Source: Candidatus Saccharimonadota bacterium (GTDB taxonomy: Bacteria; Patescibacteriota; Saccharimonadia; Saccharimonadales; Saccharimonadaceae). Taken from it: a stretch of 32,000 nucleotides of DNA. This document shows positions 4,122 to 22,125 of the stretch, piece by piece. The notes under the pieces are model-generated. The model made no database searches, was not told where the DNA came from, and saw only the letters and a list, made by a program, of their open reading frames with translations. Each line of letters starts with the position of its first letter. Within the stretch, counting starts at the first letter, position 1. The position numbers and the translations under genes are program-made. Location: NCBI GenBank assembly GCA_023898645.1, contig CP060232.1, positions 540,001-572,000 on the forward strand, in the 5' to 3' direction.

Positions 4122-7100
4122 ATGGCAAAGGCAACTCAGGGTAATGCCCGTGTGTTCTTTACTAAGGACGACACCGCGTTACCACTCCCAAACCTTATCG
4201 CTCATCAAAAAGACAGCTGGCGTGAATTCGTCGAGACTGGCTTGAGCGAAATATTTACTGAACTTAACCCGATCGAGGATTATACTGGTCAGAAGCTCGA
4301 ATTGCGCTTCAAGCAGTATCATTTCCAAGATCCAAAACTAACAGAACTTCACGCCAAGGAAAACAACCTGACGTTTGATGCGCCACTACACGTCAATGTA
4401 GAGCTGACCAACAAGGTCACTGGTGAAGTTAAAGAGCAAGAGATCTACCTAGGTGACTACCCATGGATGACAGACCGCGGTACGTTTATCATCAACGGTA
4501 CCGAGCGTGTTGTTGTTTCTCAGCTCATTCGTAGCGCAGGCGTATTCTTTACGGCTGATGTTGCAGCTGGCCGAAACTTCTACGGCGCAAAGCTTATCCC
4601 AGGCCGTGGTGCATGGCTTGAGTTTGAGACAGCTCCCGGTGGTGCAATCTACGTCAAGATTGATCGTCGTCGTAAGCTGCCTGTTACAACACTGTTACGT
4701 GCTCTTGGACACAGCAAAGTGTCTGAAATCAAGACAATGTTTAGCGATGTAGACAATGGCGACATGAAATACATCGAAGCGACTCTCGAAAAGGACCCGG
4801 CCCGTGGTGCTAACGAAGCGCTTATTGAGGTTTACCGTCGCTTGCGACCAGGTGACCTTGCAACCGTAGACAACGCCCGTACTATGATTGAGCGCATGTT
4901 CTTTGACTTTAAGCGCTTCGACTACAGCCGTGTCGGCCGCTATAAGATGAACCAACGCCTTGCCATCGACATGCCAAACACTACTGAAAGCCGCGTCTTC
5001 CAGATGTCGGACTTGATTGCGATCATTCGCGAGATCATCCGCCTAAACAACTCGCAAGAACTTCCAGATGACATCGACGCCCTTAACAATCGTCGTGTCA
5101 AATTGGTTGGTGAGCTGGTTGCCCGCCAGTTCCGCGTCGGTATGCTTCGTATGCAACGAAACGCTATGGACCGTATGTCTATGAGCGACATCGAAACAGT
5201 TACACCTGGTCAGTTGATCAACGCCCGCCCAGTCGTTGCCGCCGTACGTGAGTTCTTTGCAAGTTCACAGCTAAGCCAGCTGATGGACGAGACGAACCCG
5301 CTTGCAGAGCTAAGCCACAAGCGCCGCCTATCTTCGATGGGTCCTGGCGGTTTGAGCCGTGAACGTGCTGGATTCGACGTTCGCGACGCGCACCCAACTC
5401 ATTACGGACGCCTTTGTTCTGTTGAAACACCTGAAGGCGCAAACATTGGTCTCGTGCTCAACCTTTCTACCTACGCACGTATCAACGAATACGGTTTCAT
5501 CGAAACCCCTTACCTAAAAGTCGTTAAGGGTAAAGTGACTGACGAAGTAGTTTATCTTGATTCAAGTCAGGAAGCTACAGAAGTCATCGCTGATGCTGGT
5601 GCTGCACTCGACAAAGACGGTAAATTCGTCGACGAACGTGTTAGCGCCCGAAATGGCCTCTTGCCAGAGCAAGTTGACGCTTCAGAAGTGACTTTCATGG
5701 ACGCCGCACACAAGCAGATTCTTGGTTCAACCGCATCACTCGTGCCATTCATCGAGAAAAACCGTGTCGACCGTTCTTTGACCGGCTCAAACATGCAGAA
5801 GCAGGCTGTACCACTTCTTAATCCTGAATCTCCAATTGTTGGAACGGGTATTGAGGCAGAAATCGCAAAGAATACGAGTCAACTAGTTGTTGCCGAAGGC
5901 GCGGGCGAAGTTGTTCGTGCAGATGGCGACGAAGTTCACGTTAAATACGCTGATGGAGTTAAGAAATACGAGCTGATCCACTTTGCCAAGAGCAACGACG
6001 ATCGTTCGATTAACCAAAAAGTTCGCGTTACACGTGGCGACAAGGTTACTAAGGGTACAACATTGATCGAAGGTGCATCAATCGCCGATGGCGAACTTGC
6101 ACTTGGCCGTGACATGCTTGTTGCCTTTATGCCTTGGGGTGGATACAACATGGACGACGCCATCGTCCTTAGCGATCGCCTTGTCAAAGACGATGGACTA
6201 ACCAGTATTAACATCAAGGATTACAACGTTGAAGTACGCGAAACTAAGCTTGGTGCTGAAATCGTTACTCGCGACATCCCGAATGTTAGTGAAGAATCTC
6301 TACGTCACCTTGACGAAAACGGTATCGTACAAATCGGCTCAGAAGTTAAGGCTGGTGACGTGCTTGTCGGTAAGATTACTCCAAAAGGCGAGCAAGAGCT
6401 CAGCTCTGAAGAGCGTCTGCTCCGAGCTATCTTCGGTGAAAAAGCCAAAGACGTTCGCGATACCTCACAGCGCATGAACAATGCCGGTGGCGGTAAGGTT
6501 GTCGGTGTGAAGATCTTTAGTCGTGAGAACGGCCATGAGCTAAAAGCCGGCGTATTGATGCAAATTCAAATCTTTGTAGCTCAGCTTCGCAAGATTAGCG
6601 TAGGTGACAAGTTAGCTGGTCGTCACGGTAACAAGGGTGTTGTAGCGCGTATTCTACCTATCGAAGACATGCCGTTCATGGAAGATGGCACACCTGTTGA
6701 CGTCGTTTTGAACCCGCTTGGTGTCCCGAGCCGTATGAACATCGGTCAGTTGTTTGAGACTCACCTAGGTATGGCGGCTCGCGCACTTGGTTATAAAGTT
6801 GCAACTCCTCCATTTAACGGAGTACCTAACGACGTAATCAGTGACGAACTTGAAAAAGCTGGTTTTGCCCGTGACGGTAAGAGTCAATTATTTGACGGCC
6901 GCACAGGTGAGGCGTTTGAGGAACGAACTACTGTTGGTGTGATGCATATCATTAAGCTACACCACATGGTTAGCGACAAGATTCACGCTCGTTCAACCGG
7001 TCCATACACTATGGTCACTCAGCAACCTCTCGGTGGTAAAGCGCAAAACGGTGGTCAGCGCTTCGGAGAGATGGAGGTTTGGGCACTTGAAGCTTATGGC

Positions 7101-7489: not shown

Positions 7490-10400
7490 ATGTCACGAAT
7501 AGTCCCAGGCACCGGAATCGCTGACTTTGACGCTGTGCGCCTCGCAGTTGCCAGCCCCGAGGATATCCAGAAATGGAGCCACGGTGAAGTTACAAAGCCG
7601 GAAACAATTAACTATCGTACCCAAAAACCTGAACGAGATGGCTTGTTTTGTGAGCGCATTTTCGGACCAGTTAAGGATATCAACCCGCACGACAACAAGC
7701 TAAAGGGCGTACGCTCTCGTGAAGCAGCTGTCGACAAAAACGGCGAATTGGTTACTAAATCAATCGTACGTCGTGAACGCATGGGACACATCACCCTAGC
7801 TGCGCCGGTCGCACACATTTGGTTTATGCGCGGCACTCCGAGTGCAATGAGCCTATTGCTCGGCACGACAGTCCGCAACTTGGAACGAGTCGCATATTTT
7901 GCAAGCTACGTTATTTTGAACGTCGAAACAGAGAAGCGAGACAAGATTCTTGCTGATCTTGAAGCCGAAACTGAAGCTGCACAAGCAGCCATAAAGATTC
8001 GCTACGAAAAAGAAGCTGAAGCTGAAAACGTAGACGTCAAGGAACTTGCAACAAGGCAGTCACGCGAAATTGAAGAGCTTAATGAAAACTACAATATCAA
8101 AAAAGCTCAACTCGATAGCCTCGTAAAGGGTGCTTTGATGAATGAGACTGATTACCGCAACCTACCAGAAGAATACGAAGAACTCGTTACCGTTGGTATG
8201 GGTGGTACGGCTCTAAAAGCGTTGCTAGACGAAATTGACTTGCCAAAACTCATTGCACAACTAACTGAAGAAGTTGCTGGTGCAAAGGGTCAACGAGAAA
8301 AGAAGCTGCTCAAACGTCTTAAGGTACTTGAAGGTATGTATGCCGCAGGCATCAAACCAAGCAGCCTTACTTTGACCATTTTGCCAGTTATCCCACCAGA
8401 CCTTCGTCCGATGGTTCAACTTACTGGTGGTCGTTTCGCAACGAGCGACTTGAACGATCTATATCGCCGAGTCATCAACCGTAACAACCGTCTAAAGAAG
8501 CTAATCGACCTCAACGCGCCGGAAGTTATCCGCCGCAACGAAATGCGTATGCTGCAGGAAGCAGTTGACTCACTGATAGACAACAGCGCCGCTCGTGGCG
8601 GTCGTGCTGTAAACGCAACTGGTGGTCGCCGCCGCCTAAAGAGTATCAGCGACATGCTAAAGGGTAAGCAAGGACGCTTCCGCCAGAACCTTCTTGGTAA
8701 ACGCGTCGACTACTCAGGCCGTTCGGTTATTGTCGTCGGACCAAAGCTCAAAATTAGTGAATGCGGTATACCAAAGCAGATGGCACTCGAATTGTTCAAG
8801 CCATTTGTCATTAGCTGGTTGATCCGTGGCGAACACGCTCATAACATCAGAAGCGCAACTCGTCTTATCGAAGCAGGTGATGCACTCGTTTGGGACGCAT
8901 TAGATGCCGTTATCGAGGGCAAATACGTCCTCCTGAACCGTGCACCTTCATTGCACCGTCTATCAATTCAGGCATTCCAGCCGAAATTGGTCGAAGGCAA
9001 GGCTATCCAGCTACACCCACTTGTTGCCAACGGCTTTAACGCCGACTACGACGGTGACCAGATGGCCGTACACTTGCCACTGAGCAAGGACGCACAGCGT
9101 GAAGCTCGTGAGCTCATGTCTGCAACGAATAACTTGCTGAAACCAGCCGACGGTGCGCCAGTGCTTAACATCGGACAGGACGTGGTTCTTGGTAACTACT
9201 ACCTGACATACGAAAAGCCTAGTGCGCAGACAGATAAGGTACGAGCATTTAGTTCGGTCTACGAAGCTGAAATGGCTTACGACGCCGGCGTCATCCAGCT
9301 ACAGACACCAATTCGTCTCCATGCTAAGGGTGAGATCCGCAATACGACACTCGGCCGAGTATTCTTTAACGAAATCCTACCTGCCGACTATCCGTACGAC
9401 AACAACGTCCAGAGTAAGAAGCAACTCAAGAAGGTTCTTGCTAAGATCTTTGATCGCTACGGCGCTGAAGAAACTGCAAAGACAGCAGACCGCATGAAGG
9501 GTCTTGCGTTCCGCTTTGCGACTATCGCTGCCGTATCGACTGGTAAGGACGATTACATTAACTTTGATCAGATCGACGGGTTCGTTAAGGAAGGTGACGA
9601 GCGAAGTGCTCAGATCTCCGACCAGTTCGACCAAGGTTTGATTACTGACGATGAGCGCTACAACCTTACGGTGGCTGCATGGCGTAACGTTGACCGTAAG
9701 GTTACTGAATTCCTGCAAGACCAGCTTAAGAACATGGATACCAGTATCTCCGTCATGGTTAACTCTGGTGCTCGTGGTGATATTTCAAACGTCAAGCTTG
9801 CAAGCGCCATGATTGGTATCATGGTCGACGCAACGAACCGTGAAATTGAGCTGCCTATCCGTTCAAGCTATAAAGCCGGTCTGTCATCACTGGAAGCCTT
9901 CGTGGCAACCCGTGGTGCGCGTAAGGGTCTTATCGACACCGCGCTTAAGACGGCCGACTCAGGTTACCTGACTAGGCGTTTGGTCGACGTGAGCCAAGAC
10001 GTATTCACTGTCGATGATGACGGTGATGAAGACGAAGGCTTTACGATCTATCGCTCAGAGACTGAGGACACGATGATTGAATTCGCCAACCGCTTGAAGG
10101 GTCGCTACACAGCCAAAGAGGTTGCAGGCCATATTGCTGCCGGTGAGCTCATCACACGTGAAATCGCCGACGCTATTGAGGCAGACGAAAAGGTAGAAAG
10201 TGTCAGCATCAAGTCTGTACTGTCGACCAAAAACCTGCATGGTATTCCACGCAAGAGCTACGGTATAGATATGGCTTCTGGCGAATTAGTTGCCGAAGCA
10301 CAGCCTGTAGGTGTTATCGCCGCGCAGTCTGTCGGTGAGCCAGGTACTCAGCTTACGCTGCGAACCTTCCACGCCGGTGGTGTTGCGGGTGGAGACATCA

Positions 10401-11266
10401 CCCAGGGTCTTCCACGTGTTGAAGAGCTGTTCGAAGCTCGTACACCAAAGGGCCAGGCTTATGTAACTGAAGTTACGGGTTCGGTTGATGTATGGGAAGA
10501 TGGCAAAAAGTACATCGTTCAAGTCACACCTGACAAGGGACATGTCGAAAAAATACCTCTCGAAGACCGAAAAGCCGCAGTCAAAGACGATAGCTACGTT
10601 AAGGCTGGCGACGTACTAGCAAATGGCGACAAAGGAACTAAACCACTTGTTGCACCATTTGACGGTTACGTAGAAGTCAAAAAGACGAGTATCGTACTAT
10701 CGGCAAATGCTACTGCACCTGTCCGCTACGAAATTCCAGGCAACACACAGTTAGTTGTGAAGGCTAGCGATCACGTAGTAGCAGGCGATCGTCTAACAAT
10801 CGGCTCACTCAATCTGCACGATTTGATGCGCTTGAAGGGCGAAGAAGCTACTCAGCGCTACATAATCAACGAAGTGCTGCGCATCTACGCCGCACAGGGT
10901 CAAGACGTTGCTGACAAGCACCTCGAGATCATCGTGCGTCAGATGTTTAGCCGTGTACAGATTGAAGATCCAGTCGAAAGCGAATTCGTCACAGGCGATA
11001 TCGTTTCAAAGGCAGCGGTTGTTGAAGCAAACAAAAATCTTTCCCTGCAAGGTAAAGACACTGTTAAATACACACAGCTACTCCTCGGTATCACAAAGGT
11101 TTCCATCTGGAGCGACAGCTGGCTATCAGCCGCTTCCTTCCAGGACACGACCCGCGTGCTTATCAACGCAGCCACCAGCGGCCGCGCTGATCACCTCCAC
11201 GGTTTGAAGGAAAACGTCATTATCGGCCGAAAGATTCCGGTCGGTACGGGCGCTGCCTCATACTAA
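7490..11266 (+). CDS. rpoC: DNA-directed RNA polymerase subunit beta'
   Basis: The catalytic NADYDGDQM motif and bridge-helix/trigger-loop regions are present. It begins 2 nt after the rpoB stop, with GGAGGAGG inside the end of rpoB. Confidence 0.97.
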
Positions 11267-11348: not shown

Positions 11349-11383
11349 GAAAACCCCCGCCAGTGTTGTGCGGGGGTTTTCTT
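11349..11383. terminator. Bidirectional rho-independent terminator
   Basis: AAAACCCCCGC / GCGGGGGTTTT: the stem pairs 11354-11360 with 11370-11376, flanked by an A-tract and a T-tract. It sits between the convergent rpoC and the minus-strand gene ending at 11403. Confidence 0.85.
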
Positions 11384-11402: not shown

Positions 11403-12365
11403 CTAAAGTGTCGAATTAACTTTGCGAACGTTATCATAGCACTTAATTCCAGCAAAAGCCTTTTTAAGGACACTTGTGTCATAAGAAGAACAGAACGGAA
11501 CACCTTGTGTAACTGTAAAGATTGTCCAGTCCTTGCCTGGTTCCATGTAGTACAAGCCCTGGAAGCTTCCGCTAAATTCATTTTTGTTTTCCTGATAGAC
11601 AATTGCATACTGGTACCCGTCGGCGCCCTTAGCAAGAGTAGGCACGCCAAGCACTACATTGTTGACTGATTTTTTAGTACCGGCCACGTAGGCGTCATAA
11701 AAGGGCTGAAGGGCATTTGCCGCATCCGTGTAGCTACTCTTGTCTGCACACCCTATGCCGACAACGTAGTTCTTGACAGTGGTTTGTGTTGCGTCAGCAT
11801 CAAAAATTGCACAACGAATCTGATTAGACTCGTAAATTCCGTACCAATCGTAAGTGACAATGTCTTTATTGTCCGATATAGGCCCAGTCTGGTCTCTAGA
11901 CGAAGTTACAAATGTGAAGTTATTTTTATTAAAGAAACTCTCCAGCGCTTGATAATTTCTCTTTGCCGTTTCCGAGTCACTTATATAACCCGCACCAGCT
12001 CCACTTGCGGGAAAGGCTTTAAATTTTTTCCCAGAAGGCTGAAGGGTAGGTAAACCGTACGCCCAAAAGCCCGTTGATGTCCTGCCACCCATTCCATCTG
12101 CAATTGTAATATCTTGATTTTTACCTTTAAGATTAATTCTCGCCTGATCAACAAGATTTTGAGCAGAAGGAAACTGAGTTGCTGACTTTTTTGAGTCAGA
12201 TGAATTCTTAACTGTATTAAGTATTCCGTACATGGAATATGCAGATATCATTAAAGCAACTAAAACGATGCCTGCAAAAAACAACCAATGACGCCATTTA
12301 TTTTCCAATCCATCATGGCCAGTTGGCTGACTACCGGTCGCAGACTGCTTTAATTTGTCATCCAT
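11403..12365 (-). CDS. Membrane-anchored extracytoplasmic protein, unknown family (paralog A of 15354..16469)
   Basis: A single N-terminal TM span is present (WLFFAGIVLVALMISAYSMYGIL). The C-terminal ~250 aa aligns with the protein at 15354..16469: LQPFYDAYVAG vs LQPFYDAYVAS, GCADKSSY vs SCADLSSY, and CSSYDTSVLKKAFAGIKCYD vs CDWLTTDTMKKAFNGQPCYD. Four Cys are conserved. Confidence 0.75.
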   Translation of the reverse strand: MDDKLKQSATGSQPTGHDGLENKWRHWLFFAGIVLVALMISAYSMYGILNTVKNSSDSKKSATQFPSAQNLVDQARINLKGKNQDITIADGMGGRTSTGFWAYGLPTLQPSGKKFKAFPASGAGAGYISDSETAKRNYQALESFFNKNNFTFVTSSRDQTGPISDNKDIVTYDWYGIYESNQIRCAIFDADATQTTVKNYVVGIGCADKSSYTDAANALQPFYDAYVAGTKKSVNNVVLGVPTLAKGADGYQYAIVYQENKNEFSGSFQGLYYMEPGKDWTIFTVTQGVPFCSSYDTSVLKKAFAGIKCYDNVRKVNSTL

Positions 12366-12444
12366 TGCTTGAAGTGCCTCGTTATGTTTGTACTCATAGT
12401 TAAAATTACTATGCTTAAGGTTTTAGCGCAACTATCTACGGTGT

Positions 12445-12472
12445 TTGCAAATCCATTTCGCTTATGTACAAT
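12445..12472 (+). promoter_or_regulatory. Candidate promoter of the RCC1-repeat gene: TTGCAA, 16 nt spacer, TACAAT
   Basis: TTGCAA is at 12445-12450 and TACAAT at 12467-12472, upstream of AGGAGG (12506-12511) and the GTG start at 12521. Confidence 0.45.
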
Positions 12473-12520
12473 ATGCACATAGGGTGAAGAGGCGAGAACT
12501 CATTTAGGAGGTGATACCGC

Positions 12521-15295
12521 GTGGGATATAAAAATAGTAAGTCTAGTGCGATTAATGGTTGGATTCGTGGCTTCGTTACATACATAATGGTCGTCAGTAC
12601 GTTAGCTACTCCGATATCGACTTTCTTGAGTAGCAGTGCGGCTGCAGCAAATTCGGACGTTTTACAGGTCTCGACAGGACAAACAACTGCCTGTGCGGTT
12701 GTTGATTTCAAAGCATATTGCTGGGGAGATAATACATATGGTCAGCTCGGCACTGGTAGGGCATATAGCAGCAACATGCAGACAAAACCCGTTGCGGTAG
12801 CTGTAAACAAAAATGCCGTGTCAGTCGGATCAAGCGTATGCTCTTTCAACTTGCTGGGCGCCTGTCTTGCTTCACAGGGCACATCATCGATACCCGCTAG
12901 TCCATTAGCCGGTCTCGAGGTAGATAAAGTTAGCGTTGGAAAAACGCATGTATGCGCCTTGGCCGAAGGCAAAGTATTTTGCTGGGGTGACAATAGCCAC
13001 GGTCAGCTTGGTAATAGGTCTAACACGAGTTCATCAATACCGGTTGCTGTCGATACAAGCGCAACAGACTATACGCCTCCTGTCGTCAAAAAAACGTGTG
13101 GCGTATGGCCTTTTCAGTATAGTTGCGACGAGATACGGCCAACACAGCCAAGAAGTAATCTGAGCGGCAAAATCGTCGTAGATATAGCGGCCGGTGATTA
13201 TTTCACGTGCGCGTTGACGAACGACGGCAAGGTGTCTTGTTGGGGTTATGGAGCCGATGGTCGCCTAGGCCTGAATGGCGACACAACAACTCCGACTGCA
13301 CCTGTAAGTTCAGGTAGCCCTACAATAAAGCCGTCCACCCCAACTCCCATTCCTACTCCAACTCCAACTCCAACGCCAATCTCCACCCGGACTCCTACTC
13401 CAACCCCAGTACCTTCTAGTCGTGTAGGCGGCAATTCAAACACCAATACTAGTAATCGTACGCCCCAATCTACTCCTAGGCCAACTCCAAGGCCGTCTAG
13501 TAGTCCCGCCAAAGTAACGACAAGCAATGTCGAGGCAGAGATTATGAGTCTATATCAAGAAGGCGGAAGTTCGGTAGTTAGTGACAGCGCTGCATCTGGC
13601 GGTAAAGCTGTACGCATGACTTCAAACTCCACTAGTTCTACTGCTGCTCAAACCGGTACTTTAGAAAAAGTAAGCGTACGTGCGCGCGGGGATCAATGTC
13701 TTGGCGCACCGAATGTGCAGGTCAAGGTTGACGGCAAGGTTATCGGAACGCAATCTGTTTCTGCGACGAGTTGGAAGGATTATAGTTTTCCTGTAACACT
13801 CAGCTCGGGTAACCACAGGTTGGATGTAAGTTTTACAAATCAATTCAGTTTAAATCTATTGTTCTGGAAAGTCTGCACCAGAGCTCTCTATCTAGACAAA
13901 GCGTCATTCACTTCTTCTTCCACGGCCGCATCCGTAGAGCATAGTGACAGCAATAAATATGCACTTTCCGGAGCAAACCTTACGAATAATCAACTAGCGC
14001 AGACTACTGAAGCGTCGAATGCTCCCGTCGTTCGTCTAGCAAAAGCTTCGTCGAGCCGCTCAAGCACGAGCACTCCTACTCCGACACCGCCCGTGAATTC
14101 AAACAGTAGGACAAGTTCGGGGAGTAATGGCCGCTCGAGTACTACTGGAAATACCACTACCGATACGGCGGTTAAACCAGTAAGTTACAACGATTACAGT
14201 TACCCTAAGGCAGTTTTTGCGACGTCTGGATCCGCCCTCGCAGGTAAGTGGGGCTTGCAGCTTGCTAGGGTTTCAGGCGGTACTATGTGCGTTTTGGCCG
14301 TACAAAGTACGACACAGCCTGATACGGCCGTCGGCAATCCGTACTGCTGGGGGCGAGGTATCAGCGAAAGCGGCATTCCTGAGCCAAGTGTTAATACTGT
14401 AGCATGTAGTAAAACCTCGCCGACAACTATGCCGAGCAACTCGTCTAACACGACGTATCTTAGCACTTCAAGGCCAGTCGAGATTTCTGATTCGCAGCTG
14501 TTTTCAGCACTCGACAGCAGCGGATACGTGACCGGTCTCAGCAAAAGTGGAAAACCGTATTATTGGGGTATGTACGGATATCGCGCTGTTGAATCATACG
14601 GTTCGAAGAAAACCTGTCACTTTAATTCATGCGTGAGCTACACGACTAACGCCATACTAGCGTCCTATAGCACCAACGGTACACGAACTGTAAGTACTGG
14701 TAGCGGGTCAGTTACGCCTCACTATCAAGGAACGGCTAGTCCGGGCACGGTAGCTGGCGGCAATACCTCGGGCGGCCATATAGGCGGCGGTAACAATAAC
14801 GGAGGGAGCGCTCAGTGTATTTCAGTCACGCATGTCGGCTATACAAAAACGATTGACTATGTGCCTGTAGGCACCATGTCTCCTACTGTGCCGGCTATGA
14901 ATTTCCTTACGCAAAGCACCTTAAGCTACACGTCCGGGAATGTACGCGACGGCCTATTCTGCGCAACAAATGACACAGCGACATACTGCGATGCAAATGG
15001 ATCAAGTATGAATGAGGGTCAAACTGGGAGTAGCTACACGCAAAGTTGTACGACAACAACTACTCTCCTTGTCTTTAAAAATACCACCTGCAAACCGTCG
15101 CCAACCGGGCCACAAAAGGTGTACGCAGCTGGCTGGTTGTCTGATAAGCACGTGCAGATGCTCGACACTGGCACAAGCGGCTACACCTGTGCAATCGCAG
15201 ATGGTTCGCTAGGGTGCTGGGGTGTAAACACAGTAGGACAGCTAGGCTCAGGCGATACAAAGAACAAAAACGTACCAACTGAAGTTACGTTTTAA
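12521..15295 (+). CDS. Large secreted mosaic protein: RCC1-like repeats, PT linker, CBM-like beta-sandwich domain, S/T linker, then degenerate RCC1-like repeats
   Basis: The GTG start lies 9 nt after AGGAGG, and the N-terminus has a hydrophobic signal/anchor (FVTYIMVVSTLATPISTFLSSSAAAA). RCC1 signatures are CWGDNTYGQLGTG, CWGDNSHGQLGN, CWGYGADGRLGLNG and C-terminal CWGVNTVGQLGSGDT. A PTPTPTPTP linker follows the first repeats. The central segment ARGDQCLGAPNVQVKVDGKVIG...SGNHRLDVSFTNQ...CTRALYLDK resembles, from memory, a carbohydrate-binding-module family common in actinobacterial secreted proteins. Confidence 0.85.
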   Translation: MGYKNSKSSAINGWIRGFVTYIMVVSTLATPISTFLSSSAAAANSDVLQVSTGQTTACAVVDFKAYCWGDNTYGQLGTGRAYSSNMQTKPVAVAVNKNAVSVGSSVCSFNLLGACLASQGTSSIPASPLAGLEVDKVSVGKTHVCALAEGKVFCWGDNSHGQLGNRSNTSSSIPVAVDTSATDYTPPVVKKTCGVWPFQYSCDEIRPTQPRSNLSGKIVVDIAAGDYFTCALTNDGKVSCWGYGADGRLGLNGDTTTPTAPVSSGSPTIKPSTPTPIPTPTPTPTPISTRTPTPTPVPSSRVGGNSNTNTSNRTPQSTPRPTPRPSSSPAKVTTSNVEAEIMSLYQEGGSSVVSDSAASGGKAVRMTSNSTSSTAAQTGTLEKVSVRARGDQCLGAPNVQVKVDGKVIGTQSVSATSWKDYSFPVTLSSGNHRLDVSFTNQFSLNLLFWKVCTRALYLDKASFTSSSTAASVEHSDSNKYALSGANLTNNQLAQTTEASNAPVVRLAKASSSRSSTSTPTPTPPVNSNSRTSSGSNGRSSTTGNTTTDTAVKPVSYNDYSYPKAVFATSGSALAGKWGLQLARVSGGTMCVLAVQSTTQPDTAVGNPYCWGRGISESGIPEPSVNTVACSKTSPTTMPSNSSNTTYLSTSRPVEISDSQLFSALDSSGYVTGLSKSGKPYYWGMYGYRAVESYGSKKTCHFNSCVSYTTNAILASYSTNGTRTVSTGSGSVTPHYQGTASPGTVAGGNTSGGHIGGGNNNGGSAQCISVTHVGYTKTIDYVPVGTMSPTVPAMNFLTQSTLSYTSGNVRDGLFCATNDTATYCDANGSSMNEGQTGSSYTQSCTTTTTLLVFKNTTCKPSPTGPQKVYAAGWLSDKHVQMLDTGTSGYTCAIADGSLGCWGVNTVGQLGSGDTKNKNVPTEVTF
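13331..13414 (+). repeat. Degenerate ACTCCA-type hexanucleotide repeat encoding the Pro/Thr linker
   Basis: The tract ccgtccaccccaactcccattcctactccaactccaactccaacgcca...actcctactccaaccccagtacct encodes PSTPTPIPTPTPTPTPISTRTPTPTPVP. Confidence 0.8.
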
Positions 15296-15310
15296 ACGGC
15301 GCATAAAATG

Positions 15311-15344
15311 AAAAGTCCCCGCCTGAGTGCGGGGACAATTTTTT
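15311..15344. terminator. Bidirectional rho-independent terminator
   Basis: AAAA, then GTCCCCGC (15315-15322), loop CTGAGT, then GCGGGGAC (15329-15336), then AATTTTTT. It lies between convergent genes. Confidence 0.85.
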
Positions 15345-15353
15345 GATCTGTTG

Positions 15354-16469
15354 TTATGCTGAAACTATAGATTGTTTCTTAGTGGTTGAATCGTAGCACG
15401 GCTGGCCATTAAATGCCTTCTTCATAGTATCTGTAGTGAGCCAGTCACAATATAGTCCGTCTTGGGACGATCGAACATATGTCCAATCTCTGCCGGCCTC
15501 TTGGTAGAAGAAGCCTTCCGAGCTGTCAAACGGCGATCCGACAGTGCTGATTCCTAGGCTGGCGTTCATGTAGCCATCCATCCCGTCATTAGTCGCGAGA
15601 GGCGCTTTCAGATACGTTGCAGGGCCGCCTGCAGGCTTCACGCTAGCGACGTAGGCATCGTAAAAGGGCTGCAACACCGTAGAAGCTGCCTCGTAACTTG
15701 AAAGGTCGGCACACGATATGCTTGCCATATCAGCATCATCTGCCGTAGATTTTGTCGAATGCGTATATTTTATCTGGCATAAAACTTTCGTCGAGAGATA
15801 CACCAATTCTTGATCCGGTTCAGTAATGAGTGCTGCGTATGGCTCATCCTTCATTTGCGAAAAGCCTTCGTCCTCTAGATAACTTTGTAATGCCGAAAAA
15901 TCAGACTTTGCAACACTGGCTAAGCCCAGAGTACCTGTGCCGTATACGTTTAATGGATCATTTGCGAACTTTTTACCGTCAATTTGATAGGGGTAAGCGC
16001 CGTAAACATTGACGCCTCCGTCAGTTTCGCCGCTCGTTTTATCAGACTTTACGATTGGTGCAATCTTTCCTTGCAGTTTGAGGTCTTTCACTGAAGATAC
16101 AATGTTCTCGGCACTTATAGATGGAGTGGGTGAAGGACTAGAAGTTGCGACCGTCTGTACTTTGGCCTCGTCCTTTGGCTTATTTAAAATGCCAGCGTAG
16201 TAGTAAACGCCATCAGCAATGACAAATAAAGCCAAAACTAGCAACGCCCAAAGCCATGGAGTCTTTTTATTTTTCGGTTCGACGATTGGCAGCTGAATAG
16301 GCCTTATGGGTTCGGTAGTTTCCGACTGCTCTGACTCTATACTGACGCTGTCCTCTACCGATGAAGACGACTCCGTTTCGGCAGTCTGAGCATCCCTTTG
16401 ATTAGTGACTGGTTCTATCCCTGTGTTTTCTGGTGTATTGTCCAGTGATTCCTCGGGCTTATTTTCCAT
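15354..16469 (-). CDS. Membrane-anchored extracytoplasmic protein, unknown family (paralog C of 11403..12365)
   Basis: The acidic/Ser-rich N-terminal ~75 aa is followed by one TM span (PWLWALLVLALFVIADGVYYYAGIL). The remaining domain is homologous to 11403..12365, as detailed for that feature. Confidence 0.75.
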   Translation of the reverse strand: MENKPEESLDNTPENTGIEPVTNQRDAQTAETESSSSVEDSVSIESEQSETTEPIRPIQLPIVEPKNKKTPWLWALLVLALFVIADGVYYYAGILNKPKDEAKVQTVATSSPSPTPSISAENIVSSVKDLKLQGKIAPIVKSDKTSGETDGGVNVYGAYPYQIDGKKFANDPLNVYGTGTLGLASVAKSDFSALQSYLEDEGFSQMKDEPYAALITEPDQELVYLSTKVLCQIKYTHSTKSTADDADMASISCADLSSYEAASTVLQPFYDAYVASVKPAGGPATYLKAPLATNDGMDGYMNASLGISTVGSPFDSSEGFFYQEAGRDWTYVRSSQDGLYCDWLTTDTMKKAFNGQPCYDSTTKKQSIVSA

Positions 16470-16546
16470 ATTTTTCCTGTATTTTTTGTTTTTTAGCGTT
16501 TACATACAGTATATCGCTCTTATGCTCTATAGGCAAGCATCCAGAC

Positions 16547-16575
16547 TGGACAGAATGGTAATTTTTTGCTAATAT
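16547..16575 (+). promoter_or_regulatory. rpsL-rpsG promoter: TGGACA, 17 nt spacer, extended -10 TGcTAATAT
   Basis: TGGACA is at 16547-16552, TG at 16567-16568 and TAATAT at 16570-16575. An ~85 nt leader follows, with two hairpins (16590-16606 and 16608-16633). Confidence 0.5.
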
Positions 16576-16667
16576 AACAGGTGAGTTTCATCCTGCTCGA
16601 CAGGATACGGTACGGGATGCTGACCCGCACCGCTACATTTTTAGAAAACTAAGGAGTATTTTTATAC

Positions 16668-17081
16668 ATGCCTACCATTAATCAATTGGTGCGAAAGCCT
16701 CGCAAGACCGCCGGAAAGAAGACTAAATCACCGGCTCTTGGACGCATTCATAACGCCCTCAAAGTGCGTTACTACAACCAAGACTCACCGCTTAAGCGCG
16801 GCGTCTGTGTCAAAGTGACCACTAAAACACCAAAGAAGCCAAACTCGGCTCTTCGTAAGGTCGCACGTGTGCGCCTAACGAATGGTCACGAAGTCTGGGC
16901 ATACATTGGTGGTGAAGGCCACAACCTACAGGAGCACGCTGTAGTTCTCGTACGTGGTGGACGCGTGCCAGACCTTCCAGGTGTTCGTTACCACATCGTT
17001 CGCGGTGCACTCGACCTTCAGGGTGTTCAAAAGCGCAAAAAAGGCCGTAGTAAGTACGGTGCTAAGAAGGAGGACAAGTAG
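16668..17081 (+). CDS. rpsL: 30S ribosomal protein S12
   Basis: [13 protein letters not shown]..., [17 protein letters not shown] and [33 protein letters not shown] are present. AAGGAG lies upstream. Confidence 0.97.
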
Positions 17082-17083
17082 AA

Positions 17084-17563
17084 ATGCCTCGTAAAGTCAC
17101 CAAGAAGCTCCAGCGTGAGCTCAAACCTGACCGCAAATACCAGTCAATCCTTGTGCAGCGACTTATCAACAAGTCTATGCTAGATGGCAAGAAACTCGTT
17201 GCTGAACGTGCTGTTTACAGCGCACTAGAGCAGGCTGCCAAGAAATTGAACAGTGAAGAGCCACTGGAAGTATTTGAAAAAGCACTTAAAAACGTCAGCC
17301 CGAATTTCGAGGTTAAATCTCGTCGTGTCGGCGGTGCCAACTACCAGATTCCATTCGCCATCCAAGGTCATCGTCAACTACACTTCGCTTTCAGCTGGTT
17401 GGTTCAATCAGCTCGCAAGCGCAGTGGCATGCCATACGAAAAGCGCCTAGCCGCTGAAATCGTTGATGCATACAACGAAGCCGGTGCTGCCTTCAAAAAG
17501 AAGGAAGACACTCACAAAATGGCAGAAGCAAACCGCGCGTTTGCACACTTTGCCCGCGGATAA
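17084..17563 (+). CDS. rpsG: 30S ribosomal protein S7
   Basis: Typical S7 sequence (KSRRVGGANYQIP..., ANRAFAHF). It begins 2 nt after rpsL, with AAGGAGG inside the end of rpsL. Confidence 0.97.
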   Translation: MPRKVTKKLQRELKPDRKYQSILVQRLINKSMLDGKKLVAERAVYSALEQAAKKLNSEEPLEVFEKALKNVSPNFEVKSRRVGGANYQIPFAIQGHRQLHFAFSWLVQSARKRSGMPYEKRLAAEIVDAYNEAGAAFKKKEDTHKMAEANRAFAHFARG

Positions 17564-17580
17564 TTATGTCCGCAACTTCA

Positions 17581-17612
17581 AAAATCTCCGCCTACACGTG
17601 CGGAGATTTTTG
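17581..17612. terminator. Bidirectional rho-independent terminator
   Basis: AAAATCTCCGC (17581-17591) pairs with GCGGAGATTTT (17600-17610). It lies between rpsG and the convergent hsp20 gene. Confidence 0.85.
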
Positions 17613-17619
17613 TATGAAA

Positions 17620-18042
17620 TCATTTCTTACTCTTTACCGAAATCTTCTTTGGCTCGGGTAGGGGCGTGAGCGGTACTTTTACTTTTAGCACGCCATTTTC
17701 CAGCTGGGCGTCGATTTTATCGGCGTCGGCTCGCTGGGGTAGCTGGATGCGCCTATAAAAGGTACTACTGCTTTCGTGCACGACGTATTTTCGCCCTTTA
17801 TGCTCTTCTTTTTCGTGGCGTTGTGCCGACACTACAAGCGCGCCGTTGTCGACCTGGACAGTCACGTCGTCTTGCTCAAAATGAGGCAAGTGCGCCTCTA
17901 CGATCAAATCATTGCCGTCTGTATATACGTCGGTGGTCGGTAAATTTACACCGCTAAGCGGACTCAACCAATCATTGCTAAAAAATTGTCGCTGCAACGC
18001 TTCCATGTCGGCGAACGGATCGTATTTTTGTATATTTGCCAT
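17620..18042 (-). CDS. Hsp20/alpha-crystallin family small heat-shock protein
   Basis: Alpha-crystallin domain (DVYTDGNDLIVEAHLPHFEQDDVTVQVDNGALVVSA...FYRRIQLPQRADADKIDAQLENGVLKVKVP). The start is taken at MANIQ (ATG at 18042), 7 nt after AGGAGG. The longer ORF-track start at 18096 precedes that RBS. Confidence 0.9.
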   Translation of the reverse strand: MANIQKYDPFADMEALQRQFFSNDWLSPLSGVNLPTTDVYTDGNDLIVEAHLPHFEQDDVTVQVDNGALVVSAQRHEKEEHKGRKYVVHESSSTFYRRIQLPQRADADKIDAQLENGVLKVKVPLTPLPEPKKISVKSKK

Positions 18043-18136
18043 GTATAACCTCCTTTGTGCCCACGTACTCCGTGGGATAAACATACTCTTATACATATAT
18101 ATTATAGAGAGGCAGAGGGAGTGAAACTGAGGATAA

Positions 18137-18385
18137 TCATACAGAAACGACCGGCAGCGACTCTACCGGTACGTCAAGGATTTGGGCGAGCTTGTCGATT
18201 TTTTGAAACTTGCAATATTTGATGGCTGAGCCGTCTGCGCGGTAAATGCGGTAGTAATGATCGTAGTGAATCGTTTCATCCTTGAAGTTTTTGGCTTTCG
18301 TCGGTTCGTCAATGCGGCGTATGAACCAGCCATCTGGTTCGTCCGAAAGAATTCTTTTTATCTTTGCGTAATGGTTAAATGCCAT
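18137..18385 (-). CDS. Hypothetical small cytoplasmic protein (82 aa)
   Basis: This is the last gene of a tightly packed three-gene minus-strand unit, with a 3 nt gap to the upstream gene. I recognised no motif. Confidence 0.55.
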   Translation of the reverse strand: MAFNHYAKIKRILSDEPDGWFIRRIDEPTKAKNFKDETIHYDHYYRIYRADGSAIKYCKFQKIDKLAQILDVPVESLPVVSV

Positions 18386-18388
18386 GAC

Positions 18389-18727
18389 TCAGCGTAGTAT
18401 TGTCACCTGCAAAAGTGCAATGAAGACAGCTAGCACAGTAATGCCATACACCTGCAGGGCAGCTGTTCCGTCTGATGGTGGTAAATGCCCGGCACGAATA
18501 CTTTTATCTGTAATCCGATAACGACCGTAGCCAACGACTGCAACCAAAATGCCAAGAAATAAGACTAGAATTCCAGGAAGCGGTGTATTCTGATGAAATG
18601 CCGTTAATGCGATGCCGCCTGCTTCGATAGTGAGGCCTGTGCGCACCCAGGCAAGTAGCGTGCGTTCGTTCGCCAATAAAAAGCGTACGTCGACGTCTAG
18701 CTCTTCTTTTTTGCTTATTTTATTCAT
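18389..18727 (-). CDS. DUF202/YidH-family small membrane protein
   Basis: The DUF202 signature RFLLANERTLLAWVRTGL is followed by hydrophobic spans. The start is taken at MNKISKK (18727), because the longer ORF would overlap the upstream gene, which ends at 18751. Confidence 0.7.
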   Translation of the reverse strand: MNKISKKEELDVDVRFLLANERTLLAWVRTGLTIEAGGIALTAFHQNTPLPGILVLFLGILVAVVGYGRYRITDKSIRAGHLPPSDGTAALQVYGITVLAVFIALLQVTILR

Positions 18728-18750
18728 AAATTCAGTGTACCACGAAACTT

Positions 18751-19359
18751 TTACAGGTATGGTTCGCCGTCTTTGGGGCTTATGCCGAATTCTTCTGGCT
18801 TGATGTTCCGCCTGTCGTATACGATTCCCGATGTGCGTCTCGACGAAGACACTTCGATTTTCGTGTATGCATGTTGCCATGGTGTATCACCACTGGCCTC
18901 GAGTTCTACAATTTCGGTAGCTTTGCTTATAAGAGATGTCAGCGAATTTCGTAGAATATCTTCTTGCTTTGCATTCGTGGATTCGCGAGTGTGGACAAAT
19001 TCCGAGCGTTGGTTGCGCACTAATGGCCAGGTTGTTACAACTGGCATATGGATATACCTAAGCCGTCCACCGAAAGACAAATCTAGTTGCAACGGCATGT
19101 CCTCGTGCTCTAAGTGAAAACTGAGAAACAGGCCATTTTTGAAGAGTGCAGCCCGTACCAGCCCTAACTCCGTCTTATTAAGCGTCGAGAGCTTGTGTAT
19201 ATTATAGTTATCCATTAGGCCGTTCGTTTTTTGTAAAGACGAGTCAGGGCCTGCGGCGAGCTCATGCACGCGATCAATCATTTCTCTGCGCTGAGTTCTC
19301 TCGATACTCTCGCGCTCAATGCTCCACTTACGGTTCGTGCTGTTCTCATGCTCCGACAT
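18751..19359 (-). CDS. Hypothetical protein (202 aa)
   Basis: AAAGGAG lies 4-5 nt upstream of the ATG. This is the first gene of the three-gene unit. It has no TM segment and no motif I recognise. Confidence 0.6.
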   Translation of the reverse strand: MSEHENSTNRKWSIERESIERTQRREMIDRVHELAAGPDSSLQKTNGLMDNYNIHKLSTLNKTELGLVRAALFKNGLFLSFHLEHEDMPLQLDLSFGGRLRYIHMPVVTTWPLVRNQRSEFVHTRESTNAKQEDILRNSLTSLISKATEIVELEASGDTPWQHAYTKIEVSSSRRTSGIVYDRRNIKPEEFGISPKDGEPYL

Positions 19360-19410
19360 AGCGCTCCTTTGTTCAGATTAGTACCATTGTATAACAAACA
19401 AATGGTAATC

Positions 19411-19419
19411 TGATAAACT
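19411..19419 (+). promoter_or_regulatory. Extended -10-like element (TGaTAAACT) 7 nt upstream of the yajQ ATG
   Basis: TG is at 19411-19412 and TAAACT at 19414-19419. Seven nt (TATAGAT) follow before the ATG at 19427, and there is no SD. Confidence 0.35.
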
Positions 19420-19426
19420 TATAGAT

Positions 19427-19921
19427 ATGGCAACATTTAGTTTTGATATAGTTTCGGAATACGACAAAGCCGAAATGAACAACGTATACCAGCAGGTAGA
19501 GCGAGAAATCGCAAATCGCTACGACTTCAAGGGTTCACCAGCCAGTATTGAATGGCTGGCTGACAAAAAAGGCTTCAAAGTTATAGGAAGCAATAAATGG
19601 CAAGTTGATGCTGTCATCGACATTGTTCGAAAGAAGCTATCTGCGCGCGACATCAGCAGTAAGGTTCTTGACCTCAGTAAGAACGTAAATGAAAGCAACC
19701 TCAAGGCGACTAAAGAAGTGCCCTTTGTCGAAGGATTAGACCAAGACAAAGCCAAGAAAGTCTCTGCGCTTATACGTGAGAAATTTCCAAAGGTTAAACC
19801 GCAGATTCAAGGCGAAGCCGTACGAGTAACGAGCGGCAGCAAAGACGACTTGCAGGCTGTGATGACAGCTGTCCGCGCAGCTGATTTTGACTTCGTGACA
19901 AGCTTTACGAACTATCGTTAA
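19427..19921 (+). CDS. yajQ: YajQ-family (UPF0234) nucleotide-binding protein
   Basis: The N-terminus MATFSFDIVSEYDKAEMNNVYQQVEREIANRYDFKGS matches the YajQ family pattern (SFDIVSE...R(Y/F)DFKG). Length is 164 aa. Confidence 0.88.
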   Translation: MATFSFDIVSEYDKAEMNNVYQQVEREIANRYDFKGSPASIEWLADKKGFKVIGSNKWQVDAVIDIVRKKLSARDISSKVLDLSKNVNESNLKATKEVPFVEGLDQDKAKKVSALIREKFPKVKPQIQGEAVRVTSGSKDDLQAVMTAVRAADFDFVTSFTNYR

Positions 19922-20442
19922 ATAAACATGTCTATAACAAAGGCGAGACCGATTACACCGATGATCCATCCGCCGATGATGTCGCTCACGTAGTGAGCCC
20001 CTAGGTAAACGCGCGAGACGCCAATCATAAAGCACACGACAAGCGCTACCGCCCACGCGGCGATAGTAAGCTCTGGCCACCTGTTGCCTATGATGAGCGC
20101 CGCCATAATGAAGCTGACTAACGAACCTGCGGCATGGCCACTTGGAAAACTAAATGTTTTGATAAACATATTTTTTGAGTAGTCGGTTATTGGTCGTCGC
20201 CTGCGTAAAACGAGCTTGAGTAAACTGCCGAAGGCTATCGTGACGAAGGCGATGATACCAGCAGTCTCATAGAGCGGCTTGTCTAAAGCAAAGCCGTACC
20301 CGAACGCGATAGCTGCGACACCAACAGTGACCGGCGGTTCGCCAATCCAGCTAAATAAGTGCATGACGGGGTGCATCCACGATGGCAAATCTGTAATCCA
20401 GTGACCTACAACTCTGTCAAACGCGTGGATGGCTCGTCTCAT
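19918..20442 (-). CDS. PAP2-superfamily lipid phosphatase
   Basis: All three PAP2 motifs are present: KLVLRRRRP (KxxxxxxRP), PSGH, and SRVYLGAHYVSD (SRxxxxxHxxxD). The protein has multiple TM spans. Confidence 0.85.
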   Translation of the reverse strand: MRRAIHAFDRVVGHWITDLPSWMHPVMHLFSWIGEPPVTVGVAAIAFGYGFALDKPLYETAGIIAFVTIAFGSLLKLVLRRRRPITDYSKNMFIKTFSFPSGHAAGSLVSFIMAALIIGNRWPELTIAAWAVALVVCFMIGVSRVYLGAHYVSDIIGGWIIGVIGLAFVIDMFI

Positions 20443-21170
20443 GCTTTGCGAAAGACCCTTGCGGTGGACTTATTGACAGGAACTTTCGCTAGTGGCAACA
20501 CGCGCCATACTAGCACAAGGGCGAGTAACACAGCGAAACCACACATGATCGATGGAATTGCGGCCAGTGTGGATGGATCAACGATATTCGCGAACGTTGT
20601 TGGTACGATGAAAGCCGAGTAGCCGGCCGATGTCCATGTGAGAGCAGCTGCTGATTTTTTATTTCGTTTTGCCAATATTGCGGCAAGAAATACAGTCACC
20701 AGTAGCCAGCCATAGTAATATACGGCATACCACAGCGCACCGAAGCCATGAACGTCAAAAATAGCATAATTTGGAGCGCACTCTCGACTGACTACGGTGT
20801 CGACACCTATAACAAAGTACGCCACGTATGCCGCAGCCGTACCGTATGCCAACCACACAAGTGATCGCATAGACTTATTAGCCTTGCCGAGAGTAGTGAC
20901 TAAATGCAGTCCTAGTGCCGGTAGCACGGTGATTGCGACATATCCTGTTCGCACCCATTCAACATGCCCCAGACCCAATCCGCCGCATATCATATATTCT
21001 GCGAGCTGAAATACTCCGAGCCCAACTAATATTGACGTGACAAGACGCGACACAGTCGTCATTTTATAGCGCCATAACGTGTAAAACGCTAGAGAAAATT
21101 CAATGAGAAGCGTCGCCAGCATGACCGGAGGAGAGAAACACCATAGTTTGTTGTTATATTTCTTATACAT
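20439..21170 (-). CDS. Polytopic membrane protein, unknown function
   Basis: Several hydrophobic spans are present. Its stop overlaps the PAP2 start (ATGA, 20439-20442), which implies translational coupling. Upstream, TATACT lies 6 nt from the ATG and there is no SD. Confidence 0.7.
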   Translation of the reverse strand: MYKKYNNKLWCFSPPVMLATLLIEFSLAFYTLWRYKMTTVSRLVTSILVGLGVFQLAEYMICGGLGLGHVEWVRTGYVAITVLPALGLHLVTTLGKANKSMRSLVWLAYGTAAAYVAYFVIGVDTVVSRECAPNYAIFDVHGFGALWYAVYYYGWLLVTVFLAAILAKRNKKSAAALTWTSAGYSAFIVPTTFANIVDPSTLAAIPSIMCGFAVLLALVLVWRVLPLAKVPVNKSTARVFRKA

Positions 21171-21202
21171 ATATTAAGTATACGGCATGCTAGGCGATTA
21201 TA

Positions 21203-21231
21203 TTGCATTAAAACGAAGCATCCTGTATAGA
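21203..21231 (+). promoter_or_regulatory. Promoter TTGCAT, 17 nt spacer, TATAGA; the -10 box ends 6 nt before the ATG at 21238
   Basis: TTGCAT is at 21203-21208 and TATAGA at 21226-21231, with no SD before 21238. This is leaderless geometry. Confidence 0.5.
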
Positions 21232-21237
21232 TGACGT

Positions 21238-22125
21238 ATGAGCCTTTCAGGGGAGCACATTGGAGAACCGGGCAACAATAAGCCTGATGATGAATGGTCT
21301 ATTGATGACGAATGGGCTGTTTTTAATGCGCAGCAAATCGAACAAGACGAACTAAATGCCCGTACCAAGGTTAAAGCGGACGAGATTATGGATGGCCTTT
21401 ATCAACGCTTTGATGAATACAATATGCCGCGAGTTATCGACTTTGATGAAGATCGCGAGACTGAACTGTTTCTAGAATACGTGCGCTCACGCCAAGACGC
21501 GAAAATTGAGGAGCTGCGATGGTCGCCCGAAGGTCTCGACGACGACGCTTTATGTGAAGCCTCACTCGCAATACTTAAAGACTACTACGAAGAACGAGAA
21601 TATCAGACGAAACTATTCAATTACGCGACGATGCTCATATATGTCACAACGAACCCTGAAGAATTTAGTGACGAAGATTTAGACGTCGATGAAATGAAGA
21701 TGAAGCTACTGGCGACGTTTCAAGTTCACTATAAACTCAGCCCTGAATGGATACGTTTCTTCGATGACGTGACACCGGGAGAAAAACGAAGATACCAGTA
21801 CCCGTTATTTAACGACTACATCGAAGAAGCTTTGGATACCTTGTCGCAATTCGAGTACGAACGTTCGCGGAGATGGATGATTATAGAGATAGCAAAGGAA
21901 ATACTTGGCGTAAACGAAGATGAAGACGACTTGTCTGATGTTTTAACGAATGTTTCACACCTTATAGAAATGCAATTTATCGCCAACACAACCGTAAACT
22001 CAGACTCTGACAGAGCGAACAGAAATGCGGATTTATGGGAATACGGCCGAGAAGTTGGGCTAGACAACGAGTCGCTCCGGTCGATCATCTCATTTTTCGA
22101 ACAGACTTATCAGATTGAGAACTAG
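21238..22125 (+). CDS. Highly acidic cytoplasmic hypothetical protein (295 aa)
   Basis: A long ORF with visibly D/E-rich composition (DDEWSIDDEW, EEFSDEDLDVDE, NEDEDDLSD). It has no TM segment or signal peptide and no recognisable motif. Confidence 0.6.
   Translation: MSLSGEHIGEPGNNKPDDEWSIDDEWAVFNAQQIEQDELNARTKVKADEIMDGLYQRFDEYNMPRVIDFDEDRETELFLEYVRSRQDAKIEELRWSPEGLDDDALCEASLAILKDYYEEREYQTKLFNYATMLIYVTTNPEEFSDEDLDVDEMKMKLLATFQVHYKLSPEWIRFFDDVTPGEKRRYQYPLFNDYIEEALDTLSQFEYERSRRWMIIEIAKEILGVNEDEDDLSDVLTNVSHLIEMQFIANTTVNSDSDRANRNADLWEYGREVGLDNESLRSIISFFEQTYQIEN

Follow-up and report, generated by a model that had tools for sequence, protein, structure and literature searches.

PilX2 of Nanosynbacter lyticus TM7x is a seven-bladed β-propeller of RCC1 repeats that was judged lectin-like by structure comparison, and its deletion halves host binding (bioRxiv 10.1101/2024.11.25.624915). 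Here we describe another extracellular Saccharibacteria protein with RCC1-type propeller repeats, P0003, and the locus encoding it in Candidatus Saccharimonadota bacterium (GenBank assembly GCA_023898645.1, contig CP060232.1, positions 540,001–572,000 of the forward strand; this stretch of 32,000 nucleotides is called the window, and positions are counted from its first letter). The genome is closed, measures 1.13 Mb and is 99.98% complete. P0003 is encoded between rpoC and rpsL, flanked by the genes for P0001 and P0002, two membrane proteins of an unnamed family in which they represent different clades, A and B. We lean, if only slightly, towards interpreting the locus as a composite variable surface-protein site at a recombination-prone junction of two highly conserved operons, where a surface binding device would be encoded and modules would be swapped.

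The closest described systems each share part of these features. PilX2 has been described as a pilin-like "lollipop" whose N-terminal helix is hydrophobic and is encoded in a type IV pilus locus, whereas P0003 and its homologs from the genus have a cleavable Sec signal peptide, begin with a propeller blade, are not accompanied by pilus genes and have a protein of the unnamed family as partner, the sequences being set apart here by description. BLIP-II (PDB 1jtd, 3qhy), which matches residues 120–242 of P0003 (E 3e-11), is also an RCC1-type propeller secreted by bacteria, and its action consists in binding a target. It is a propeller and nothing else (270–290 aa), whereas the 924 aa of P0003 include Cys-rich loops and, inserted in the propeller, a module that resembles carbohydrate-binding modules of family 60 (CBM60); P0003 is not found in a β-lactamase context. 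CBM60 (PF16841, Ca-dependent, xylan- or galactan-binding) and CBM6 modules resemble the module in P0003, which is flanked by Pro/Thr (PT)-rich and Ser/Thr (S/T)-rich linkers as in secreted glycan-binding proteins; in P0003 the module is located inside the propeller rather than appended to a glycoside hydrolase, and the profile match spans positions 2–59 of 91. The pneumococcal capsule locus between dexB and aliA is a variable surface locus between conserved genes that is exchanged by homologous recombination in a competent bacterium. The rpoC-rpsL locus shares with it conserved flanks (92–98% amino acid identity here), divergent content (32–45% amino acid identity, or other genes altogether), disagreement between alleles and flanks, and a competent lineage; it differs in that the flanks are core information-processing operons, that the cargo amounts to one to five genes and that recombination is something we infer.

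In the window, the gap between rpoC and rpsL, both placed by Pfam, measures 5.4 kb and is filled by three genes with extracytoplasmic products, as the original prediction had stated. The main features are:

7490..11266, plus strand: rpoC, the left conserved flank (Pfam RNA_pol_Rpb1_1 to _5; 80–92% amino acid identity across the genus).
11403..12365, minus strand: gene for P0001, clade-A family member of 320 aa, partner of the RCC1 gene.
12521..15295, plus strand: gene for P0003, secreted RCC1-type propeller protein of 924 aa (Pfam RCC1, RCC1_2 and WD40_RLD; sequence matches in the PDB).
13304..14200, plus strand: insertion of about 300 aa within the propeller of P0003 (from the alignment with six genus homologs).
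15354..16469, minus strand: gene for P0002, clade-B family member of 371 aa, resident in the rpoC-rpsL spacer of the genus.
16668..17563, plus strand: rpsL-rpsG (rpsL 16668–17081), the right conserved flank (Pfam S12 and S7; 90–98% amino acid identity in the genus).

Comparison of rpoC-rpsL synteny confirmed the view that the three genes are inserted between units that are usually close neighbors. In 15 other genera, belonging to other families of the order and having both genes on one contig, the spacer measures 50–303 bp, and the arrangement in the window is neither ancestral nor universal. Within the genus, the spacer ranges from 228 bp to 5.4 kb and is either empty or contains one gene of the family, several modules of a clade-A gene and an RCC1 gene (G016), or unrelated genes (G007). 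A tblastn search of the family-free spacers of G004, G006, G007 and G024 detected no remnants of the family. A targeted fetch of 20 spacers provided those of 17 genomes that belong to three related families (L051–L069): the spacer measures 0.6–3.7 kb in 16 genomes, eight of them from the same family as the present genome and eight from a neighboring one, and 2.8 kb in the single genome of a third family. Labeled by reading of the sequences, their cargo includes acidic proteins of 230 aa, a secreted protein of 577 aa, cupredoxin-like, methyltransferase-like and glycoside-hydrolase-like (583 aa) proteins, and a protein of 842 aa; the profile of the P0001/P0002 family matched none of the cargo in these 17 spacers. 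The rpoC-rpsL junction is a lineage-restricted cargo hotspot. Individual cargo genes encode a cupredoxin-like membrane protein (L055, 6362–6763), the glycoside-hydrolase-like protein of 583 aa, which has a PT linker and a C-terminal transmembrane segment (L067, 5089–6840), and a single-pass membrane protein of 357 aa without Cys (L063, 5143–6216).

The three genes in the window belong to two separate components of this cargo. In a maximum likelihood tree of 24 family members, the family splits into clade A, which includes P0001 (support 100/99), and clade B, which includes P0002. Nine of the eleven clade-A members in the tree directly adjoin an RCC1 gene. They are found at the rpoC-rpsL junction in this genome, G014, G016 and G018, and at other loci in G003 (contig C7), G006 (C11), G016 (C81) and G018 (C5). 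Lone family genes in antisense orientation between rpoC and rpsL were detected in six genome assemblies (G001, G002, G005, G015, G020 and G021) and in the metagenome contigs L040 and L041; all of them belong to clade B, except that of G005, which falls outside both clades. P0002 also groups with P0006, P0007, P0005 and the member from G010. The locus in the window is a resident clade-B gene plus a clade-A/RCC1 module inserted at a cargo hotspot.

The association of clade A with propellers extends beyond this junction. A genome-wide search for pairs, with the C-terminal part of the propeller and the family profile as queries, located 15 cases, distributed over 11 genomes and several loci, in which an RCC1 gene of the P0003 type adjoins a family gene. 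The pairs occur in both gene orders. When arranged in tandem (G016 C81, G006 C11, G003 C7, G008 C35 and G016 C52), the open reading frames are separated by −26 to +15 nt, a spacing that is operon-like, and divergent pairs share a common spacer of 100–200 bp. In G008 (L049, G008:C35:1-9000, 2492–5686), a tandem clade-A/RCC1 module is located between fusA and a homolog of the 371-aa gene that separates fusA from tuf in the window, which makes a further junction of this conserved cluster a landing site. For nine pairs, the sequence distances of the two partners correlate (Mantel r 0.75, p 0.002), and the correlation persists when the outlier, the pair that diverges most, is left out (r 0.52, p 0.018). 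Judged by these distances, the correlation shows inheritance of the A+RCC1 pair as a unit. Two modules are stacked between rpsL and the contig end on G016:C52 (L026, 952–6699), where the middle clade-A copy is truncated: it measures 307 aa, has two Cys and contains a TAG within the region that the profile matches. Separately, sortase-like genes, recognized by eye from a TLxTC-type motif, were noted in relatives at a distance of a few kb from two genes of the family (L030, 4932–5600; L034, 769–1503), although neither the family proteins nor P0003 contain an LPXTG motif.

The closest relative recovered, contig L035, has rpoC with 92.5% and rpsL and rpsG with 98% protein identity to those in the window, and at its junction the A and B genes stand in tandem without an RCC1 gene. 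An additional open reading frame of 101 aa (L035, 1348–1653, minus strand), which has no counterpart in the window, is located there between the clade-B gene and rpsL. Despite the closest rpoC, the B allele of L035 is only 32% identical to P0002, which makes it the least similar one. The B allele closest to P0002 (48.6% identity) was instead found on L041, where rpoC is 87.6% identical, and their grouping has support of 100/98 in the tree. This disagreement between allele and flank suggests that alleles may have been replaced by recombination. Saccharibacteria are naturally competent (PMC10633639 and its preprint); the main text of that paper, which covers Tn-seq in Southlakia, mentions none of rpoC, rpsL and the proteins described here.

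P0001 and P0002 are the only two copies of the family in the 1.13-Mb genome. As proposed before from the sequence, the outer genes on the minus strand are clear paralogs: BLASTP aligned their products with 33% identity over 284 aa (E 8e-32), the alignment displays the shared blocks LQPFYDAYVA, (G/S)CAD(K/L)SSY (GCAD.SSY) and KKAF.G..CYD, and each protein has one N-terminal transmembrane helix, visible as a single hydrophobic segment. P0001 consists of a short cytoplasmic tail, a transmembrane helix at about residues 27–49 (12219–12287) and an ectodomain of 259 aa (11406–12182) with two predicted disulfides. In P0002, a cytoplasmic tail of about 70 aa, acidic and rich in Ser, precedes a transmembrane helix at about residues 76–94 (16188–16244) and an ectodomain with the same four Cys. 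The conservation of these Cys, also part of the original prediction, holds across an alignment of 62 diverse family members, in which two of C185, C206, C292 and C309 (P0001 numbering) are invariant and two are more than 90% conserved. Among the genus members, four Cys follow the hydrophobic segment in 23 of 24, and all 24 have a single hydrophobic segment, which starts 26–156 residues from the N-terminus after a variable, low-complexity region. Because of the single hydrophobic segment and because Lys and Arg are usually more numerous before it than after it in these 24 proteins, the sequences fit a bitopic topology with the N-terminus inside and the C-terminus outside, and with a putatively disulfide-stabilized outer domain. 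We also considered P0001 and P0002 as lipoproteins and rejected this, as there is no Cys before the ectodomain and the hydrophobic segment begins 26–75 residues past the N-terminus.

The family had not been recognized when the locus was first read, and no housekeeping or other curated family was found to match the paralog domain. P0001 and P0002 had no match in Pfam-A, NCBIfam, PADLOC or PHROGs. A Pfam scan of the 62 family members yielded only scattered weak matches that are attributable to the hydrophobic transmembrane segment or to the low-complexity N-terminus, a profile search of the PDB sequences matched only transmembrane stretches, and no names were found for the metagenomic clusters of the family. 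Since a word-based homolog search retrieved few members, family size was determined by a full scan with a hidden Markov model: a three-member profile, compared with 1.84 billion representative proteins, detected 758 clusters at E≤1e-3 and 116 at E≤1e-30, nearly all with a length of 300–390 aa. With a single sequence as query, the family was detected in 15 of the 22 other genomes searched within the genus, compared with none of 18 outside it. With a profile of the ectodomain, weaker matches, mostly in the C-terminal half, were obtained in 13 of 217 genera of the order, and because of these matches the family is patchy yet wider than one genus. It is an unnamed family that is restricted to Saccharibacteria.

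An AlphaFold2 model of the P0001 ectodomain from a 15-sequence alignment reached a mean predicted local distance difference test score (pLDDT) of 93.9 and a predicted template modeling score (pTM) of 0.88. It superseded a three-sequence run with a pLDDT of 57, which had given meaningless Foldseek matches. In the model, an N-terminal helix and small sheet precede two consecutive units, each made up of a long helix and a four-stranded antiparallel sheet. With a structural match defined as Foldseek E≤1e-3 or template modeling (TM) score ≥0.5, none was obtained: the best E-value was 0.013 in the PDB and 0.024 in BFVD, with query-normalized TM scores of at most 0.23 and 0.26, respectively. The check by structure prediction and Foldseek that had been proposed for the ectodomain thus gave a confident model without a significant match, and the modeled fold is unmatched among solved (PDB) and viral (BFVD) structures, the two sets compared.

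P0003, the enclosed plus-strand protein of 924 aa, had been described as combining RCC1 repeats with a sugar-binding-like domain, and RCC1, RCC1_2 and CBM60 all exceed their Pfam thresholds. Its gene has an AGGAGG 8 nt upstream of a GTG start. RCC1 scored 99 bits (cut-off 21.7) in five stretches and RCC1_2 68.8 bits (cut-off 22), and sequence matches in the PDB include HERC2 and UVR8 besides BLIP-II, so that the sequence has its likeness in RCC1-like domains of eukaryotes as well as in the bacterial propeller. The RCC1 blades occupy residues 45–262 and 560–924; residues 1–45 form a Sec signal peptide that ends with AAA|ANS, and the C-terminus is the last blade. The protein contains 24 Cys. Homologs from the genus similarly have Sec signal peptides of n-h-c architecture that end in AxA-type sites just before a conserved first blade, QVSTG..ACAV. 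A pilin-like reading, prompted by RG|F in the N-terminus of P0003, was dropped, as the homologs show ordinary Sec signal peptides and no pilin leader was found; P0003 is neighbored by rpoC, rpsL and the two family genes, and no pilus genes adjoin it. Anchoring by sortase was rejected as well: P0003 lacks an LP.T[GAS] motif and ends in the last propeller strand. With a signal peptide and no anchor motif, P0003 would therefore leave the cell unless something holds the propeller.

Alignment with six genus homologs of 564–657 aa delimits residues from about 262 to 560 of P0003 as one clean insertion between blades, which is specific to this genome among those compared; the blades on either side of it are conserved. 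It is composed of a PT-rich linker, a CBM60/CBM6-like module (residues 347–470, 13559–13930) and an S/T-rich linker. The CBM60 match covers residues 384–442 and profile positions 2–59 of 91 (E 1.9e-12, 47.9 bits, cut-off 28.2), a CBM_6 match was weak and below threshold, and a search of the genus homologs of P0003 detected no CBM.

These observations can be arranged into a mechanism. The rpoC-rpsL spacer of the genus often contains one antisense clade-B gene for a predicted bitopic membrane protein (here 15354–16469). The sister clade A (here 11403–12365) forms a two-gene module with a predicted Sec-secreted, Cys-rich RCC1 β-propeller that lacks an anchor, and in the window this module lies between rpoC and the resident B gene. 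The propeller here has acquired the insertion of PT linker, CBM60-like module and S/T linker that is absent from its relatives. The clade-A protein would then retain at the cell surface a propeller that is not anchored by itself, or cooperate with it in another way; propeller and CBM may bind glycans of the host cell wall or polymers of the environment; and alleles and modules might be swapped between strains of a competent lineage by homologous recombination via the conserved flanks, whereby binding specificity would be varied. From the sequence evidence, the gene pair probably forms a variable cell-surface binding device, in which the family protein might act as anchor for a glycan-binding propeller. 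A possible role in host contact, also part of the original prediction, gains some plausibility from the RCC1-propeller adhesin of a cultured Saccharibacterium (bioRxiv 10.1101/2024.11.25.624915). A more far-reaching version is unlikely as a whole: the family would provide membrane anchors of a new fold that are peculiar to Saccharibacteria, its clade-A members would pair with cognate secreted RCC1 propeller lectins, and recombination would shuffle such pairs into the rpoC-rpsL and fusA-tuf junctions, where they would be exchangeable determinants of the host or surface glycan to which the epibiont attaches.

Several findings weigh against a swapped binding device. Adjacent genes are co-inherited, and the Mantel correlation indicates a module that moves as a unit, not binding between its products. 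The disagreement between alleles and flanks was found in few genomes, and unequal evolutionary rates could yield the same pattern. Between genomes of the genus, other accessory genes likewise share no more than 29–35% identity; therefore low identity alone is no proof of diversifying selection, and we abandoned the notion that the locus is hypervariable relative to other accessory genes, which are equally divergent between members of the genus. The CBM60 match is limited to profile positions 2–59 of 91. Clade-B genes and distant family members stand alone, so that the family has a function for which no propeller is needed, and a second RCC1-repeat protein of this genome (691 aa, G000:C1:288175-290250, L050 4175–6250, minus strand), which is related to the C-terminal blades of P0003, has no family neighbor.

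The solitary family members and the unpartnered second RCC1 protein, together with the many unrelated cargos that, by reading of the sequences, occupy the junction in related genera, would also suit three independent surface or secreted proteins at a junction that merely collects lineage-specific envelope genes, with the clade-A protein and the propeller not touching each other. We nevertheless regard such independence as rather unlikely, given that A+RCC1 pairs were found at five or more different loci, with either gene order and in either orientation and with operon-like spacing when in tandem, and that conservation of a pair regardless of site and orientation is unexpected under chance co-location.

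Alternatively, the clade-A protein could be a chaperone or an aid in oxidative folding that assists folding or export of the Cys-rich propeller and forms no lasting anchor. The 24 Cys of P0003, a partner that is exposed to the same compartment and presumably co-transcribed where the two genes stand in tandem, and the presence of SciW/Eag chaperones among the weak, non-significant Foldseek neighbors are compatible with such a helper. The ectodomain, however, shows neither a CxxC motif nor features of a thioredoxin, and the positions of its four Cys on neighboring elements are those of structural pairs. No client gene lies close to the clade-B and distant members, and the structural matches remain far from significance (TM score at most 0.23). 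We consider a folding or export function improbable.

The original prediction saw the locus as a single cassette in which two paralogs bracket a large gene, and by extension all three genes would form one dedicated unit with both paralogs working with the propeller. The genes are adjacent, all extracytoplasmic and bounded by terminators, and the same layout was found in three other samples of the same population (97.6–99.4% nucleotide identity). These are the only other places where the full trio occurred; no other genome examined carries it. A search for related loci found none in JGI metagenome contigs and one locus in genome contigs. Of the co-occurrence expected for the three genes, the A+RCC1 part is strongly recurrent, whereas the trio is confined to this population. 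As the closest relative has A and B in tandem without a propeller, as the family gene stands alone in six assemblies and two metagenome contigs (clade B in all but one), and as the paralogs fall into separate, well-supported clades with different habits, the bracketing of one cassette did not hold up, and a single unit of three genes is highly improbable. The earlier interpretation of the locus is partly supported.

Least credible of all is that the family proteins are bitopic, anti-sigma-like sensors or signal transducers whose ectodomain would sense a ligand, perhaps the glycan-loaded propeller, and whose tail would signal: a single-pass topology with the N-terminus inside, a cytoplasmic tail of 25–155 aa and the position of clade B next to the promoters of highly expressed operons would suit it, but the tails are of low complexity, either acidic or rich in Ser, and conserved neither in length nor in sequence, neither a sigma factor nor a regulator is encoded close by (the window contains no sigma gene), and no anti-sigma or other Pfam domain was found.

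Four noncoding features separate the genes of the locus:

11349..11383, no strand assigned: bidirectional terminator-like hairpin common to rpoC and the clade-A gene, AAAACCCCCGC-9 nt-GCGGGGGTTTTC.
12366..12520, no strand assigned: divergent spacer of 155 bp between the clade-A gene and the RCC1 gene, with a promoter-like site at 12444–12472 (plus strand) and AGGAGG before the GTG start.
15311..15344, no strand assigned: bidirectional terminator-like hairpin where the RCC1 gene and the clade-B gene converge.
16470..16667, no strand assigned: divergent spacer between the clade-B gene and rpsL, with promoter-like hexamers on both strands, not above chance.

The two strong bidirectional terminators that had been predicted are both present as hairpins with an A-run before and a T-run after. 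The hairpin at 11349–11383, read directly, has a GC stem of 7 bp, and the terminator scanner missed it because its loop of 9 nt exceeds the 8 nt that the scanner allows. The hairpin at 15311–15344 has a stem of 8 bp with 7 GC and T-runs on both strands, and was detected by the scanner on both. The divergent promoter regions proposed alongside are unproven: the two divergent spacers contain nine promoter-like hexamers, compared with 8.4 expected in shuffled sequence. An origin from a defense system or phage was rejected: a PADLOC scan gave no match, and the PHROG matches were to RCC1 repeats only.

According to Pfam, the gene order around the locus is hisS, tig, clpP, rpoB, rpoC, the genes for P0001, P0003 and P0002, rpsL, rpsG, about 4.6 kb of small accessory genes, fusA, an unknown gene of 371 aa and tuf. 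The str operon of the window is accordingly broken twice more, between rpsG and fusA (17564–22222) and between fusA and tuf (24308–25618). The first of these gaps, of about 4.6 kb, contains genes for HSP20, an 82-aa open reading frame, DUF202, a 202-aa orphan, DUF520/YajQ, PAP2, a protein with multiple transmembrane segments and an acidic protein of 295 aa. The gene that splits fusA from tuf (24404–25519) has no Pfam match.

Host recognition and attachment by ultrasmall Saccharibacteria are little understood, and the one adhesin candidate that has been tested is an RCC1 propeller. The present analysis defines a sizeable uncharacterized family of about 758 clusters, with a confident model unlike any solved structure, and the recurrent gene pair ties this family to secreted propellers, which leads to a testable hypothesis of an anchor plus a lectin. 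The junction of two of the most conserved operons of bacteria is a site of variable envelope genes in part of the phylum. It would be useful for strain typing and for finding candidates for host-range determinants, and may possibly provide a neutral or expressible insertion site for genetics.

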